Source: a virus
Lineage: Duplodnaviria; Caudoviricetes
Virus record (IMG/VR): IMGVR_UViG_3300017978_000064
Coordinates: 1 to 30,813 of that record
Reading direction: 5' to 3' (one strand)
DNA length: 30,813 bases
The notes under the pieces were generated by a model. The model had not been told where the DNA came from and did no database searches. It saw only the letters and a list, made by a program, of their open reading frames with translations. Position numbers and translations under genes: made by a program. This document shows positions 11,266 through 29,800 of the stretch, in pieces (positions within the stretch are counted from its first letter, which is position 1; the number at the start of each line of letters is the position of its first letter).

Positions 11266-11290
11266 TAATTAGCAATTTTTCAGAAATGGC
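11266..11290 (-). promoter_or_regulatory. putative phage late promoter GCCA-N14-CTAATTA
   Basis: Same boxes and spacing as 13361-13385 and 14292-14316; 6 nt before the ATG. Confidence 0.65.
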
Positions 11291-11292
11291 AT

Positions 11293-11321
11293 AAAAAAAG
11301 GGAGACCGAAGCCTCCCCTTT
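11293..11321 (-). terminator. Rho-independent terminator after the capsid/tail tube genes
   Basis: GGGAGGC-TTCG-GTCTCCC stem with a UUCG tetraloop followed by T7. Confidence 0.9.
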
Positions 11322-11341
11322 CCCAATGAAAGAAAACAATA

Positions 11342-11848
11342 TTAGATACCCAAAGCAGTCACAACAGCAGTTTGCAATTTGTAAGGTGCTTCTGCCTCAA
11401 TCGCACTTAAAGTGAAATTGTAGCCGTAGTTATCACCCATTGCAGTACCGGTCTCTTGCGTCATCGCTGTGATGTCACATCCGTACTCTTTACCTACAAG
11501 CCAGTAGTTAGCGTTGTTGTCTTCTACTACACAGAAAACTCTGTTTTGAGCAAGAAGTTTCAACTCGTTACGTTTAGTTGTTGCCAACTTGCGTAAACGT
11601 GCTACTACGTCAGTTTGGTTAAATACAGTTCCGTTTTCTTGTGATACGTTAGTAGTGGTAGTCATAGAACCAACACCCTTTGGCATCTCGTATGTGTATA
11701 CGCTGCCAGAAGCGATGGTAGTTGCTGTAACCTCTCCACCGCTAACGGTAAATCCTGTTGATGCAAAGTCTACCAAGTGGATAGCTTTAACGCCTCCTAC
11801 TGAATCTTTGCAATCTAAAGTAAAACCTGCGGTTAAGTTACAAGCCAT
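11342..11848 (-). CDS. major tail (tube) protein, putative
   Basis: MAC.LT.G...CKDSVGGVKAI, VED.N..YWLVG and TGTAMGD..GY.FTL patterns; between the MCP gene and the terminator. Confidence 0.7.
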   Translation of the reverse strand: MACNLTAGFTLDCKDSVGGVKAIHLVDFASTGFTVSGGEVTATTIASGSVYTYEMPKGVGSMTTTTNVSQENGTVFNQTDVVARLRKLATTKRNELKLLAQNRVFCVVEDNNANYWLVGKEYGCDITAMTQETGTAMGDNYGYNFTLSAIEAEAPYKLQTAVVTALGI

Positions 11849-25541: not shown

Positions 25542-26040
25542 TTATTTCTTTTTTAATTGTGTTAATGACCCTTAAGATTTCTTGTCTACTGATATCCGTT
25601 GCTCTGCTTATGCTCCTGGCACTTCGTGGTTTAATGTCTTTAGTCTTGTCTCCTTCAGCGTATAACGTCCAAATCTTCTGTTCATACCAATCTCGTGACT
25701 CTACAACCTCTTCAATAGCTAAATGTAGCATCTCTCTGTAGTGGCTGTCAAAGGTGGTTATCTCTTGTACTTCTACGATGTCGTAAAGTCCTATAGGTGC
25801 AAGGTAGTTCTTTTGAAAGTTTGTGCGTTTGCCGTAAAATTGATTTAAGCCTATTCTGATAATGAAGCCTTCCCAGTAACCGCTCGTGTACTTTTCTTCA
25901 ATCCACTTGTCATCTTTTTCGCATAGAATCAAAAAGAGTTCTTGGTATAAATCAGAGGCTAACTCTCCTGCAATCTTTTGACAGAAATCTCGTACCCACT
26001 TTTGAGTCGTTAAGTCTTTTATGATTTCTTGCTTTCTGAT
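25486..26040 (-). CDS. phage RNA polymerase sigma factor (ECF-like), probable non-canonical ATC start
   Basis: Frame open upstream of the track start through ASDLYQELFL (region 2-like); C-terminal HTH SARSISRATDISRQEI; in-frame TGA two codons before ATC 26040. Confidence 0.72.
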   Translation of the reverse strand: MRKQEIIKDLTTQKWVRDFCQKIAGELASDLYQELFLILCEKDDKWIEEKYTSGYWEGFIIRIGLNQFYGKRTNFQKNYLAPIGLYDIVEVQEITTFDSHYREMLHLAIEEVVESRDWYEQKIWTLYAEGDKTKDIKPRSARSISRATDISRQEILRVINTIKKEINARLISDFGNSIDEFDFC

Positions 26041-26044
26041 ACAT

Positions 26045-26052
26045 CAAAGTTA
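26045..26052 (-). promoter_or_regulatory. Bacteroidota -7 element TAACTTTG in front of the sigma gene
   Basis: Matches TAnnTTTG; 4 nt from the ATC, the same spacing as TATATTTG to ATG at 2353. Confidence 0.65.
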
Positions 26053-26084
26053 ACCCCTATTTTTAAACAAGTTTTCAATATTTT

Positions 26085-26234
26085 TTAAACAATACGTTTA
26101 CTATCGTCTATTGAATAAAGCGTCCATCCTTGCTTAATATACTTTTTATAATAGTACATCAGTTCCTCATCTGTGTTAAGACAAATGTGGATTGATTCGT
26201 AAGACCTCCTCATTGTAATTGTCAGGAATCGCAT
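26085..26234 (-). CDS. 49-aa hypothetical protein MRFLTITMRRSYESIHICLNTDEELMYYYKKYIKQGW... (absent from the ORF track)
   Basis: Hand translation; fills the gap between the DnaA-C gene and the sigma promoter. Confidence 0.55.
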   Translation of the reverse strand: MRFLTITMRRSYESIHICLNTDEELMYYYKKYIKQGWTLYSIDDSKRIV

Positions 26235-26661
26235 TCAATTCTGCTTCGATTTGTTTGAATAGTTTCATTTCGTATTTAGCTCCAATATGCACTAAATCTC
26301 CTATCATATTTCTGCCGTGAATTACTGTGCTATGGTCACGATTGATATACAACCCTATTTTAACCGTTGCCTCTTTCATGTAGACGTTGGCAAAGTAGCA
26401 GAAGAATGATCGTGCAAGTACATACTCTTGCCTTCTTGATTTAGAAAAAAACTCTGTTGGTAGCACATTCGTGACAGAGCAAACTATCTTCATCAGATTG
26501 TCAAGGCTCTTGTGATGCACTTTGATTATCTTCTTTGGGTTGAGAATCATGTTTCTTAATAGTTCAATCTCTTGGTCTTTCTTTGCTAACAAAGCCTCAT
26601 ATCTCGCTTTCATTCGAGCGTGTTGGGCTTTTAGTGTGATTAAATCGGCTTGGTAGTTCAT
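26176..26661 (-). CDS. DnaA C-terminal-like HTH protein with N-terminal coiled coil
   Basis: SRRQEYVLAR..F.Y and IG..INRDHSTVIHG signature of the DnaA domain IV fold. Confidence 0.85.
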   Translation of the reverse strand: MNYQADLITLKAQHARMKARYEALLAKKDQEIELLRNMILNPKKIIKVHHKSLDNLMKIVCSVTNVLPTEFFSKSRRQEYVLARSFFCYFANVYMKEATVKIGLYINRDHSTVIHGRNMIGDLVHIGAKYEMKLFKQIEAELNAIPDNYNEEVLRINPHLS

Positions 26662-27638
26662 ATTGTTTCTATAATTTTAAAAAGTTCTAATGCTACTTGT
26701 GGTACTATTGCATTTCCGTATCCTTTGATAGATTCTGCTCTCCATTTAGAAAAGGTAATTCCGTCCAATTTGGTGGAAAGCCCATCATCTCCGCTACAAA
26801 CTGGGGATTGAGTTGGGAATTTTTGCCAGTTTTGTAGCCCATTGTGTCCTCTACATAGCTCGGTATATCCCCTATCCTCCCTTCGCATCCCTTCCAGTCT
26901 CGGCTTCTTGGTTTTGGCAGAATCCCCATTGTCATTGCTCTTGCTAATGTTACTGAGTGCATACTGCCCTCCTTCACTTGAGTTGATTTCATTGTTGCTG
27001 TCGCATTTGTTGAGTCCATTACTGTCGGTGTCGGTAGCATTCCTCTCTGATAAATGAATCCGCTCTGAACTTCTTGTGCAAGTGTTCCGCTGTTGCCAAA
27101 CTTCTGTTGTTTCTTGCTTAGATTCTCCGTGTACGCATCTGTTGAACATGGTGTTTTGAGCAATAAACCAGCATCTGTCTCGTCTATGCGGTGCGTTTTT
27201 GGCTGCAGCTGGAATAATAAACGGTTGAACTTCGTACCCTTCAGTTTCCAAGTCAAGGCACACCTGCTCGAATACCAATCCGCCATCAATATTCGTGATG
27301 CCAAAGACGTTTTCTGCAATGACGTATTTGGGTTTAATTTCTTGAATTGCTCTAAGCATTTCTCCCCAGAGGTAGCGTTCATCATCTTTCCCTTTTCTTT
27401 TTCCTGCCATTGAGAATGGTTGGCAAGGGAATCCTCCTGTGAGAATGTCAATTGTGTTTGCATATTTTTTAAAATCAGTTTTACAAATATCTATGTGACT
27501 ATCAGCGTTTGGAAAATAATAGTCTAATACTTTACGAGGGAACTCCATCCATTCGCAATGAAATACGTTTTCCCAACCCATCCACTCAGCAGCAAGATCA
27601 AATCCTCCTATACCTGAGAATAAACTTCCGTGCCTCAT
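26658..27638 (-). CDS. DNA (cytosine-5) methyltransferase, catalytic alpha chain
   Basis: Motif I FSGIGG, IV GFPCQ, VI ENV, VIII APHRRDR, X YGNAIVPQVA; no motif IX seen in this frame. Confidence 0.92.
   Translation of the reverse strand: MRHGSLFSGIGGFDLAAEWMGWENVFHCEWMEFPRKVLDYYFPNADSHIDICKTDFKKYANTIDILTGGFPCQPFSMAGKRKGKDDERYLWGEMLRAIQEIKPKYVIAENVFGITNIDGGLVFEQVCLDLETEGYEVQPFIIPAAAKNAPHRRDRCWFIAQNTMFNRCVHGESKQETTEVWQQRNTCTRSSERIHLSERNATDTDSNGLNKCDSNNEINSSEGGQYALSNISKSNDNGDSAKTKKPRLEGMRREDRGYTELCRGHNGLQNWQKFPTQSPVCSGDDGLSTKLDGITFSKWRAESIKGYGNAIVPQVALELFKIIETI
26705..27463 (-). CDS. overprinted alternative-frame subunit (beta chain: TRD plus motif IX) of the C5 methyltransferase
   Basis: 252-codon nested ORF with LKTP/LPTP/LPKP repeats and LNPQFVAEMMGFPPNWT; exact start uncertain. 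Confidence 0.78.
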   Translation of the reverse strand: MQTQLTFSQEDSLANHSQWQEKEKGKMMNATSGEKCLEQFKKLNPNTSLQKTSLASRILMADWYSSRCALTWKLKGTKFNRLLFQLQPKTHRIDETDAGLLLKTPCSTDAYTENLSKKQQKFGNSGTLAQEVQSGFIYQRGMLPTPTVMDSTNATATMKSTQVKEGSMHSVTLARAMTMGILPKPRSRDWKGCEGRIGDIPSYVEDTMGYKTGKNSQLNPQFVAEMMGFPPNWTELPFLNGEQNLSKDTEMQ

Positions 27639-28864
27639 AGTATTTCTTTATAACGTGTGTAACGCCCTTCAAATGACATTGGTACAGATACACATTGCCC
27701 ATGTCTATTCTTGCCTATAATTAACTCAGCATCCATTTCAATCTCAGGCTTATCGTCTGAGTAATACGCTGGTCTAAATGGAAATAAAACAATATCAGCA
27801 TCTTGTTCAATTTGACCACTCTCTCTTAAGTCTGAAAGCATTGGTTTCTTTTCAGCTCGTTTTTCAGTTTCTCGTGAAAGTTGTGCAAGTGCAATAACTG
27901 TAATTCCTAACTCTTTAGCCAAAAGTTTAAGAGTTCTACTGATGTGTGCAATCTCTTGCTCTCTTATTTTCTGATGGCTTTTGATTAACTGCATATAATC
28001 AATGAAAACTATATCTAACCCATGTTTTGCTTTGTGTAGTTTTATCTTCGCTATAATGTCATTAATATCACTATTGCTGCCATCATCAAGAAAGAAGTCC
28101 ATATTCATTCCGTAAAGTTGCTCTGTGATTTGTTTTAAATCAGATTCAGTCAACCTTGCACTTCTTATTTTGTAGTTTTCTACATTCGCAATAAACGAAA
28201 GATATCTTTTTGCAAGTTCCTCTTTTGACATCTCCAAAGAAATAAATAGAACCTTTGCAAGTCTACAGGAGTCAATGGCAAGTGAAAGAGCTATTGCAGT
28301 TTTTCCGCTACCAGGTCTACCTGCTATTACAACCATATTCCCTTTATTCCAACCGCCTAAATATTTGTCAAGGTATTTCCATCCTGTGCTTATGCCTGTC
28401 ATGTTAGTTCCTCTTTGAACTGCCTCGTATAAGGTGTCAATTACATTTCCTGCAACTGAAGAAATTACTTTTGCTTTTTGCCCAACACTTACGGTGTTCT
28501 CTTGCAACATCAAATTGATTTCGCTTATTATTTCGTTTAGATCACGGTCATAATTAAAATAAGCCATCTTAGATTGAATGTTGTTTTTCTTGTAAGCAAT
28601 TTCAATCTGAAGAATCTCTTTTTCTAAATTGACGTTTGTAGTTACAAGATTTTGCATGGTTGCAATCTCTCTCAGATGTTCACGATGGCGTAAACCAATA
28701 GAGGATAAACTTACAGGCTCATTGCTCATGTAAAACTCTTGCATTGTAGTTACAACGTCTTTTCTAAATGAGCTAAACCATAAAGGGTTTAATTTCATTA
28801 TAAAGTTATGTGCATCAGGATAAAGAAACATTTGTCCTAATATGCTATTTTCTATTTCAATCAT
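27635..28864 (-). CDS. dnaB: replicative DNA helicase
   Basis: GRPGSGKT, SLEM, IDYMQL, LAQLSR, DLRESGQIEQDAD and KNRHG motifs. Confidence 0.96.
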   Translation of the reverse strand: MIEIENSILGQMFLYPDAHNFIMKLNPLWFSSFRKDVVTTMQEFYMSNEPVSLSSIGLRHREHLREIATMQNLVTTNVNLEKEILQIEIAYKKNNIQSKMAYFNYDRDLNEIISEINLMLQENTVSVGQKAKVISSVAGNVIDTLYEAVQRGTNMTGISTGWKYLDKYLGGWNKGNMVVIAGRPGSGKTAIALSLAIDSCRLAKVLFISLEMSKEELAKRYLSFIANVENYKIRSARLTESDLKQITEQLYGMNMDFFLDDGSNSDINDIIAKIKLHKAKHGLDIVFIDYMQLIKSHQKIREQEIAHISRTLKLLAKELGITVIALAQLSRETEKRAEKKPMLSDLRESGQIEQDADIVLFPFRPAYYSDDKPEIEMDAELIIGKNRHGQCVSVPMSFEGRYTRYKEIL

Positions 28865-29423
28865 CTAATGTTGCTCTTTTATGTGTTATCGTTGTTGTTT
28901 GCAAAGTTATCTTTTTTGGTGGATAAATACCGCTGTAATTATTTGCTATGCTATACTCTACAGCGTTTGTAAAGTCTAAAGGGTTTGGATAATCTTTAAC
29001 AATTGTTTTCTTCAATGCTTCAAGTCCAGTAGGTTTATACGTTTGCTTTTTCTCTTTCTTGTACTGTAACCATAAATTTAAACTCTCTTTGTATTCTTTT
29101 ACATTATCATTATCATTATCATTTACATTAGCTTTTACTTTGCTTTCGTTTAGGTTATGTTTAGGTTCTATTTTGGTTTCAGTTAGGTTTTCTTTTGCTT
29201 TCTTTGGTCTACCTCCTTTATTGCCATTTGCATACTTACGCAAATTTGCATCTAATTGAGGTTTAATAAGTTTAAAGATTGTAGATGGTAAACCACTTAA
29301 ATCAATTTGATTTTGGTTTAATCCATACTCAAAAACTGCTTCCAAAACTTTCGCTTGGTGTAGTGGCTCAAGCTCTTTGATAGCATCATAGAACGAGCGA
29401 TAAATTATCATTGATTCTCTCAT
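28857..29423 (-). CDS. putative replication initiator (DUF6291-like N-terminus)
   Basis: YRSF..AI..L, IKPQLD and NG.KGGRP patterns; low-complexity linker; helical C-terminal domain; directly upstream of dnaB. Confidence 0.72.
   Translation of the reverse strand: MRESMIIYRSFYDAIKELEPLHQAKVLEAVFEYGLNQNQIDLSGLPSTIFKLIKPQLDANLRKYANGNKGGRPKKAKENLTETKIEPKHNLNESKVKANVNDNDNDNVKEYKESLNLWLQYKKEKKQTYKPTGLEALKKTIVKDYPNPLDFTNAVEYSIANNYSGIYPPKKITLQTTTITHKRATLDD
29102..29200 (+). repeat. iteron-like array (7 x TTWGSTT at an 11-bp period) plus adjacent CATTAT tandem repeat; putative origin
   Basis: Units start at 29128, 29139, 29150, 29161, 29172, 29183 and 29194; (CATTAT)3 starts at 29102. Confidence 0.7.
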
Positions 29424-29575
29424 AAATAAAAAATGCCCATAGAAAATAGATGTGAGAGAGACATCTATTAACTACGGGCAAATATCTTTTAACTTAACCA
29501 TCTCTCTCATGGTTGTGTTTTTAATATTTAAAAGAGAGGCAGCAGGTGTTGTTACTACCCCTCTGATTTGGTGTA
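29424..29575 (-). ncRNA. structured 5' leader with two complementary-loop hairpins and a terminator-like stem (candidate cis-regulatory RNA)
   Basis: AACCAT-GAGAGAG-ATGGTT (29496-29514) and AATAGATGT-CTCTCTC-ACATCTATT (29445-29469), the latter extended by TGCCCGTAG/CTATGGGCA and followed by T7. Confidence 0.7.
29472..29510 (-). CDS. 12-aa leader peptide candidate MREMVKLKDICP
   Basis: ATG lies in the first loop-hairpin after an A-rich run; TAG lies in the 5' arm of the terminator-like stem. Confidence 0.4.
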   Translation of the reverse strand: MREMVKLKDICP

Positions 29576-29577
29576 TG

Positions 29578-29585
29578 CAAATATA
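29578..29585 (-). promoter_or_regulatory. Bacteroidota -7 element TATATTTG for the replication operon
   Basis: TATATTTGC immediately after the upstream stop codon; identical to the element at 2358-2365. Confidence 0.7.
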
Positions 29586-29587
29586 AA

Positions 29588-29800
29588 CTAAATTTCGGGA
29601 TTTTCCAACTGAATAAACCCAGTATGTCTATTACTTCCCATTTCTTTTAAAAATTGCACTTCTACTTTTGCGGAGTTAATGATTACCTGTGCAACCTCGC
29701 TGATTGCTCTTGCCTTCTCTATTTCCATGTCTCCGTCTTTAAGCATTTCAATAGTTTCAAATAGATGGTGTCTCAGGTCTTGAATTTTGTCTTTTGCCAT
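29588..29800 (-). CDS. small helical hypothetical protein, partner of the upstream HNH gene
   Basis: DLRHHLFETIEML...ARAISEVAQVIINSAKVE; overlaps the upstream gene. Confidence 0.8.
   Translation of the reverse strand: MAKDKIQDLRHHLFETIEMLKDGDMEIEKARAISEVAQVIINSAKVEVQFLKEMGSNRHTGFIQLENPEI

Follow-up and report, generated by a model that had tools for sequence, protein, structure and literature searches.

A conserved kissing-loop leader, with a terminator-type hairpin, precedes the replication genes of a phage with a likely Bacteroidota host

The window (the whole stretch of DNA analysed, 30,813 nt) is an almost complete phage record (G000; estimated completeness 99%) in which all 28 open reading frames (ORFs) of at least 130 aa sit on the minus strand. 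Its genes include those for a terminase, a portal protein, a lysin, a methylase, a DnaB protein and a DUF6291 protein with weak O-type initiator likeness. The last is the predicted replication initiator (188 aa, 28857–29423, minus strand; DUF6291 N-terminus, Pfam PF19808, E 6e-16; phrog_678, replication initiation O-like, E 8e-7). Its ATG lies at 29423 (minus strand), and its stop is overlapped by the gene for a DnaB-like replicative helicase (27635–28864, minus strand; Pfam DnaB_C, E 1e-84). The leader occupies the gap between a 70-aa gene (29588–29800) and the initiator, confirming the position directly before initiator and DnaB given in the original prediction. Elsewhere on the minus strand, a 240-nt gap (25932–26176) ahead of a 148-aa ORF that starts with TTG and has no family match may be the broken 5' part of that ORF's gene. 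A 252-aa ORF (26705–27463) runs in another frame within the C5 methylase gene (26658–27638), and a short ordinary terminator with a UUCG loop (11290–11340), of a kind that relatives also have, lies 3' of gene 11342–11848.

All parts of the leader lie on the minus strand. The predicted leader promoter is a Bacteroidota-type -7 box, TATATTTG (29578–29585), read against the consensus TANNTTTG, the TAnnTTTG box described as the Bacteroidetes -7 element in the accessible part of PMC6847099; by itself the motif is frequent in the window (44 found, 39 expected). Because the leader carries a box of this type, the phage host is likely a member of the Bacteroidota. The box is followed by accessory hairpin A and a short U-run (29533–29564; 12 bp including G-U pairs, by folding prediction), by hairpin B (29491–29519; inner stem 29496–29514, 3-bp outer extension) with the 7-nt loop x (GAGAGAG, 29502–29508), and by an A/U-rich linker (29481–29495) whose length is conserved in relatives. 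Hairpin C (29434–29480) has a terminator-type stem, assigned from folding and stem stability, and a 7-nt loop x' (CTCTCTC, 29454–29460). The U-tract that had been predicted to follow C is present (29424–29433) and directly abuts the initiator start codon, but it reads T6-A-T3 and not T7. The 201-nt leader region was predicted to fold at -54.6 kcal/mol (z -5.7; 0 of 200 shuffles equally stable), and its minimum-energy structure contains A, B and C, so that the three hairpins first proposed all stand. The loops of B and C, described as perfectly complementary over 7 nt, were found to be so, the exact complement extending to 9 nt, and neither loop is paired in the fold predicted for the full-length leader. 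No hairpin-plus-U-run found in the window is more stable than hairpin C (~-25 kcal/mol); a scan for short-stem terminators makes no call there, and the features of an intrinsic terminator (a stable G+C-closed hairpin, then a U-run) are present, which marks C as a predicted terminator. A 12-aa upstream ORF (uORF), starting in B and stopping in the 5' arm of C, lies at 29472–29510 as had been stated, and the C loop is also complementary to the initiator start over 7 nt.

Taken alone, the window is weak evidence for a loop-loop contact, GAGAGAG being a GA-repeat 7-mer with 9 copies against 3.4 expected, and the case for more than a chance match therefore comes from covariation in relatives. Loci were gathered around initiator relatives in viral contigs and genomes, with four more from a loop-specific scan. 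From 286 loci with a start position, those with less than 150 nt upstream were dropped and duplicates merged, giving 183 distinct upstream regions. A single hairpin of at least 12 bp with a U-run near the ATG was present in 66 of these and absent from 117, so that most initiator genes do without the element; among the metagenome loci, 10 of 61 distinct upstream regions held the strict leader form. An exact upstream complement of at least 7 nt (within 70 nt) was found for 20 of the 31 distinct C loops as against 19 of 930 swapped pairs, a count reached in 0 of 10,000 permutations (permutation maximum 8); one leader was taken per distinct loop string, with no tree built, so that related leaders are not independent samples in this count. 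Since the four loop-selected loci all have the loop of the window, the count is unaffected by them. The loop-specific scan (39 stretches, many of them unrelated chance matches) selects on the result and was used statistically for the start-codon test only.

Two open-loop scans, with patterns fixing only the flanks of B, gave 76 matches in 34 distinct leaders, with a complement of at least 6 nt in 34/34 and of at least 7 nt in 31/34 (9 codes; swapped pairs 1/72). These patterns were derived from leaders already seen and many of the matches are known contigs; three of the codes were new. A covariance model (R1), built from 25 leaders, matched 46 of 66 sources chosen by hand, a count that includes its 25 training rows. 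A perfect 7-mer loop pair was present in 43 of these 46 matches, always 48–51 nt apart and in 12 codes, the other three having 6-mers. All 7 kiss pairs had changed on both sides (covariation 0.467 versus at most 0.222 when slid; 0/500 shuffles), and most unpaired cells in this test arise because the GAGAGAG group is misaligned by one column. Two-sided changes were also seen at 20 of 21 stem pairs, and at 6/6 pairs of the inner stem of B, where 94.9% of cells were paired in an alignment fitted to the structure. Leaders of DUF1376-like initiators bring further codes, with a complement of at least 7 nt in 7/15 distinct loops (7/210 swapped) and of 6 nt in 12/15 (34/210 swapped). The compensatory loop changes that the original prediction had asked for in homologous leaders were thus present, in 12 codes and on both sides of every kiss pair. 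An ordinary terminator with a chance loop match would agree with the low-complexity GA repeat of the window's own code, but for the leader family it is refuted by these same compensatory changes, and it is given next to no weight. The comparisons argue that the match between the B and C loops is real and under selection, and that the leader is a real, conserved kissing-loop element before phage replication genes.

The conserved core of the leader runs in the order promoter box, hairpin B (5–6 bp plus an outer stem), linker, hairpin C, U-run and ATG. A promoter box was found upstream in 53 of 57 leaders; its distance to x is 13–19 nt in the largest leader group and 68 nt in the window, where hairpin A intervenes. 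The linker between the inner B stem and C measured 16–19 nt in 38/43 leaders, and the distance from the end of x to the start of C was 20–24 nt in 46/46; hairpin C itself was 44–49 nt long with 17–21 bp, again in 46/46. The U-tract directly 3' of the C stem is conserved among the leaders, and in most two-hairpin leaders C ends 5–11 nt before the ATG. Hairpin A was rejected as a core part: among the leaders viewed only close relatives of the window have it, L003 and L011 with an altered stem and loop, and it is absent from L012, L014, L177 and others.

Two further elements of the original prediction were not borne out in the relatives. The uORF has its 12-aa form in 5 of 57 leaders, is 41 aa long in the close relative L003 and a single codon in many leaders, and 8/57 leaders are without any ATG; in the window it is probably incidental. 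Pairing between the C loop and the start codon fared no better, a downstream 7-nt complement being found for 1 of 31 loops as against 24 of 930 swapped pairs (5,889 of 10,000 permutations as high; 70 nt downstream searched). The window's own loop pair moreover precedes ATGGCTGAA starts in L070, L072, L079 and L093, and MAENKK starts in relatives, which argues that the complement between C loop and start is a by-product of the common MRE start. A translated uORF acting with loop C/start codon pairing to gate translation, in the manner of IncI plasmids, would explain why both features occur in the window and its nearest relatives; given the single loop with a downstream complement, the different starts behind the same loops and the leaders without an ATG, such an arrangement is very improbable. 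An IncI-type leader-peptide switch was accordingly rejected, because neither start pairing nor uORF nor hairpin A is conserved. What survives of the RNA switch originally suggested is a structured leader with a B/C kiss and a terminator-type C; start-codon pairing and a role for the uORF do not. An antisense RNA, which the original prediction had suggested as a check, was looked for as an opposite-strand TAnnTTTG box (this promoter type only), and none was present to +150 in 57/57 leaders; such a box lies at ~+380 to +405 in 4 of 26 leaders. The window has one at 29038–29045 (plus strand), within the initiator gene and pointing toward the leader, as in 4/26 relatives tested.

One copy of the leader per genome was found in the window and five related records, with no further copies. 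In 5/5 genomes, C exceeded all other terminator-like hairpins in stability and was alone in having an upstream complement of at least 7 nt. These genomes are almost wholly one-directional, and no tyrosine integrase, resolvase or above-threshold HTH_3 repressor was found in 5/5 genomes examined. The leader is a candidate master control of gene expression in these phages, since neither an integrase nor a clear repressor was found in the five genomes tested. The gene downstream is usually that of a DUF6291 protein and elsewhere that of an HTH_36 or DUF1376-like protein or a short unknown ORF, and the proteins of the three named families have unrelated N-termini. Leaders ahead of short ORFs without a Pfam family occur in L340, L365, L395 and L387; on the L365 contig, the initiator comes ~230 nt after the short ORF. 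In L011 the flanking genes are 88–100% identical to those of the window, whereas the leader code and the initiator N-terminus differ, the differing cassette (~450 nt) being 42–68% identical; the two records thus present natural codes on near-identical backbones. In host chromosomes, the 71 loci gathered around relatives of the initiator contained no full match and a set of 5 genomes a single weak one; genomes of one phylum gave 0/151, in a scan with 25 candidates scored per genome and no positive control, which shows little. Two Riemerella-type cultured phage records with DUF6291 initiators, the two examined, were without the leader. Expression was looked for in the contigs of two runs, none of which extends over the leader, so that they speak neither for nor against its transcription.

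Other arrangements were seen upstream of initiators. A two-site form (~330–500) precedes DUF1376-like initiators in L472, L475, L477, L478, L480, L487, L488 and L494: the loop of an upstream hairpin complements the 3' internal loop of the terminator, a second segment just 5' of an ATG complements its apical loop, and both sites covary. Five of these eight leaders were scanned against Rfam, with no match. A one-hairpin form lies upstream of the initiator ATG in L140, L146, L158, L164, L168, L170, L171 and L123; its predicted 5' end carries 9 nt complementary to the terminator's upper stem on the 3' side, and the letters of this pairing differ in each leader (read by eye, without a count). In L021, L027, L035, L122, L142 and L145, a segment complementary to the terminator loop occurs without a clear hairpin B; it lies 3–12 nt past the promoter box in all of these except L142, where no box was found.

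The leader is proposed to be a transcription attenuator in which the kiss, in cis, would block termination, and terminated leaders would break the kiss in trans. In the first step, nascent x' would be captured by loop x before C is complete; the linker would be too short to allow the kiss while C is zipped over its full length; C would thus stay open at its base, with read-through into the initiator, DnaB and the genes behind. In the second step, in a transcript without the kiss, C would zip and a leader RNA of ~100–150 nt would be released with both loops free. In the third and weakest step, released leaders would bind the loops of nascent leaders of the same code and pre-empt the cis kiss, giving more termination with the linker unstrained; the outcome would be delayed negative feedback on the replication genes, and possibly exclusion of same-code phages. 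The first two steps (read-through with the kiss, termination without it) are considered probable, and the complete scheme, with its trans step, is judged somewhat more apt to fail than to hold.

The contact is placed in cis because the spacing is fixed, and the variation in the kissing letters makes a ligand pocket unlikely. Nested-only folding of growing transcripts, a calculation that leaves out pseudoknots and the polymerase footprint, gave x:x' pairing with P>0.5 in 23–27 of 43 leaders when the 3' end lay 0–6 nt past x', 16–20 of the 43 being without it; at +18 nt it was found in 0/43, and the top of C won in 42/43. In a crude coaxial model, a kiss together with a full C needs roughly 68–98 Å base to base. 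With B fully folded, the linker is at most 13 nt in 43/43 leaders, too short to bridge this distance easily; with only the inner B stem formed, the 16–19-nt linker of 38/43 leaders, fully stretched, could reach across kiss and full C.

The same hairpin could instead act on translation, C hiding the start region in read-through mRNA and the kiss (in cis, or by the short leader in trans) opening it. The 5–11 nt between C and the ATG would suit this arrangement, as would the tuning of Bacteroidetes initiation by structure near the start codon (in the available text of PMC6847099) and the precedent of IsrK (likewise, PMC4825925). The conserved U-tract right after the stem points to termination instead, and at equilibrium, opening the base of full C was calculated to cost ~17 kcal/mol, more than the 7–13 kcal/mol of the loop duplex; control of translation is considered unlikely.

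For the trans step of the proposed attenuator, four observations were counted in favour: the missing antisense box to +150 in 57/57 leaders, the unrelated N-termini of the downstream proteins, the occurrence of the 70-aa gene in only 2/5 genomes, and the different code of L011 on a 42–68% cassette inside 88–100% flanks. Leader-derived RNAs that act on their own transcript have precedents in P4 CI/seqA and IsrK (PMC4825925, as far as its text was available). Counted against it were the variability of the loops, which is no greater than that of the stems (mean pairwise difference 0.36 versus 0.47–0.60), and the 9 of 12 codes that are one letter away from another code, both unlike the result of strong selection for distinct specificities. 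Also counted against it was the lack of an integrase, resolvase or clear repressor in 5/5 genomes, in which no lysogenic state needing RNA immunity is therefore seen.

Several of these points would equally suit an attenuator gated by the kiss without any trans RNA, either as a fixed read-through set by folding kinetics or with the kiss stabilised by a host or phage protein. The ColE1 kissing complex is stabilised in this manner by Rop, which reads its shape. Fixed spacing and stem lengths indicate a cis contact; the letters of the loop show some constraint (G at 1 in 10/12 codes, A at 6 in 11/12) and no more variable than the stems; and lysogeny genes were not found in the 5 genomes. A fixed fraction could, against this, already be given by a simple leaky terminator, and no conserved partner protein was found, phrog_2044 occurring in 2/5 genomes. 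The 70-aa upstream protein found no support as a Rop-like partner, its gene being present in 2/5 genomes; the model of the phrog_2044 protein showed a generic helical hairpin, for which fold comparison gave nothing at E<=0.001. Gating without a trans RNA is thus a possible but doubtful account. Alternatively, the terminated leader could be a small RNA with a job of its own, such as a decoy or a double-kissing dimer, the initiator being fed by terminator leak. The leader's own promoter box, its strong predicted terminator and the loops left free in the predicted full-length fold would agree with this, as would AbiF/RCd22, where a terminated leader acts in trans on a protein (bioRxiv 10.1101/2025.04.15.648962, in the part consulted). 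The genes directly behind the leader, however, are of initiator type and belong to three unrelated N-terminal families; listed with this point are the 3 of 34 open-loop-scan leaders that precede short unknown ORFs and the one more that precedes a cut-off ORF. An independent small RNA is accordingly rated a distinctly improbable explanation.

In its fullest form, the kiss-gated attenuator with trans feedback would be an RNA-only self-timer and exclusion code, one 100–150-nt leader serving as cis antiterminator, terminator and trans self-repressor, with the 7-nt loop pair as its swappable code; this is put forward tentatively, as a reading rather unlikely to hold in full. If it were true, the one-site and two-site leaders of Bacteroidota phages may together form an undescribed superfamily, of which this leader would be the simplest member. 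A true trans step would make the element an RNA-encoded exclusion system and would provide a limited number of orthogonal attenuator parts for Bacteroidota. The kissing-loop/terminator geometry, known from one riboswitch class, is also used, with no conserved ligand pocket, where the replication genes begin in many uncultured phages with likely Bacteroidota hosts.

The original remark that no described family was known for the element agrees with the Rfam result. Nothing in the whole window reached the gathering score; positions 29200–29800 gave 11 chance-level matches far below gathering; and 17 related loci gave 1 weak unrelated match. A literature search whose scope excluded most subscription journals found no description of the element.

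Plasmid replication initiators offer the first comparison. The IncI/IncB rep leader uses a pseudoknot and a leader peptide, pT181 and pIP501 use attenuation, and these systems are antisense-controlled. They share with the phage leader, where it is predicted, the control of a replication initiator by RNA in its leader; the phage leader differs in having no conserved uORF, start-region pairing or counter-transcript promoter. The C4 antisense RNA has an a'/b' pair of sites, which the two covarying sites of some DUF1376-like leaders resemble. Like P4 CI and P1 C4, the phage leaders have same-strand loops complementary to an upstream segment (seqA; a1/b1). In P4, a leader RNA controls premature termination before replication genes, according to the available part of PMC4825925. 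The second, downstream target of those systems (seqC, a2/b2) has a counterpart here for 1/31 loops in the 70 nt searched, a conserved small ORF of the icd/kil kind is absent from the phage leaders, and the complementary loop lies on the intrinsic terminator itself. Rfam holds the C4 RNA of P1/P7 (RF01695; PMC2864571, as far as consulted), and the phage leader has no match to it, either at the gathering score or at E<=10 or E<=1. In the Gifsy-1 prophage, transcription of the IsrK leader either stops at the leader's own terminator or continues past it, and the short form acts in trans on the long one; as described in the accessible text (PMC4825925), IsrK activates translation via an upstream ORF and long pairings, in contrast to the 7-nt loop-loop contact without a conserved uORF seen here.

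A 2023 catalogue of phage RNAs (PMC10690425) places four candidates, DNAVirus_187, 4653, 4859 and 704 (49–124 nt, from aquatic Caudoviricetes), within 25 bp upstream of DUF1376, DUF4373 or HTH_36/Phage_rep_O genes. The DUF1376/HTH_36 gene context is common to the leaders described here, and on comparison by description only, the leader family may overlap these anonymous entries; the catalogue's terminator entry is 'no' for each of the four, and in the portion of the catalogue available a pseudoknot is mentioned only for GP32 leaders. The closest likeness in layout is to the guanidine-IV riboswitch (mepA motif) and its variant Gd4v, which share two hairpins, a loop-loop pseudoknot and a 3' hairpin that is a Rho-independent terminator. 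There, the linker becomes shorter as the terminator stem grows, which puts the kiss under strain (available parts of PMC11611296 and PMC9788692), so that in both systems the kiss would hinder completion of the terminator, as predicted for the phage leader. The pseudoknot letters of guanidine-IV are conserved, whereas the phage leaders have 12 codes in which each kiss pair changes on both sides; guanidine-IV controls guanidine export and related metabolic genes, whereas the phage leaders precede DUF6291, HTH_36 and DUF1376-like initiators and short unknown ORFs. The leader, with no Rfam match to guanidine-IV or any other family, is thus uncatalogued there, and its geometry is one already known from guanidine-IV.
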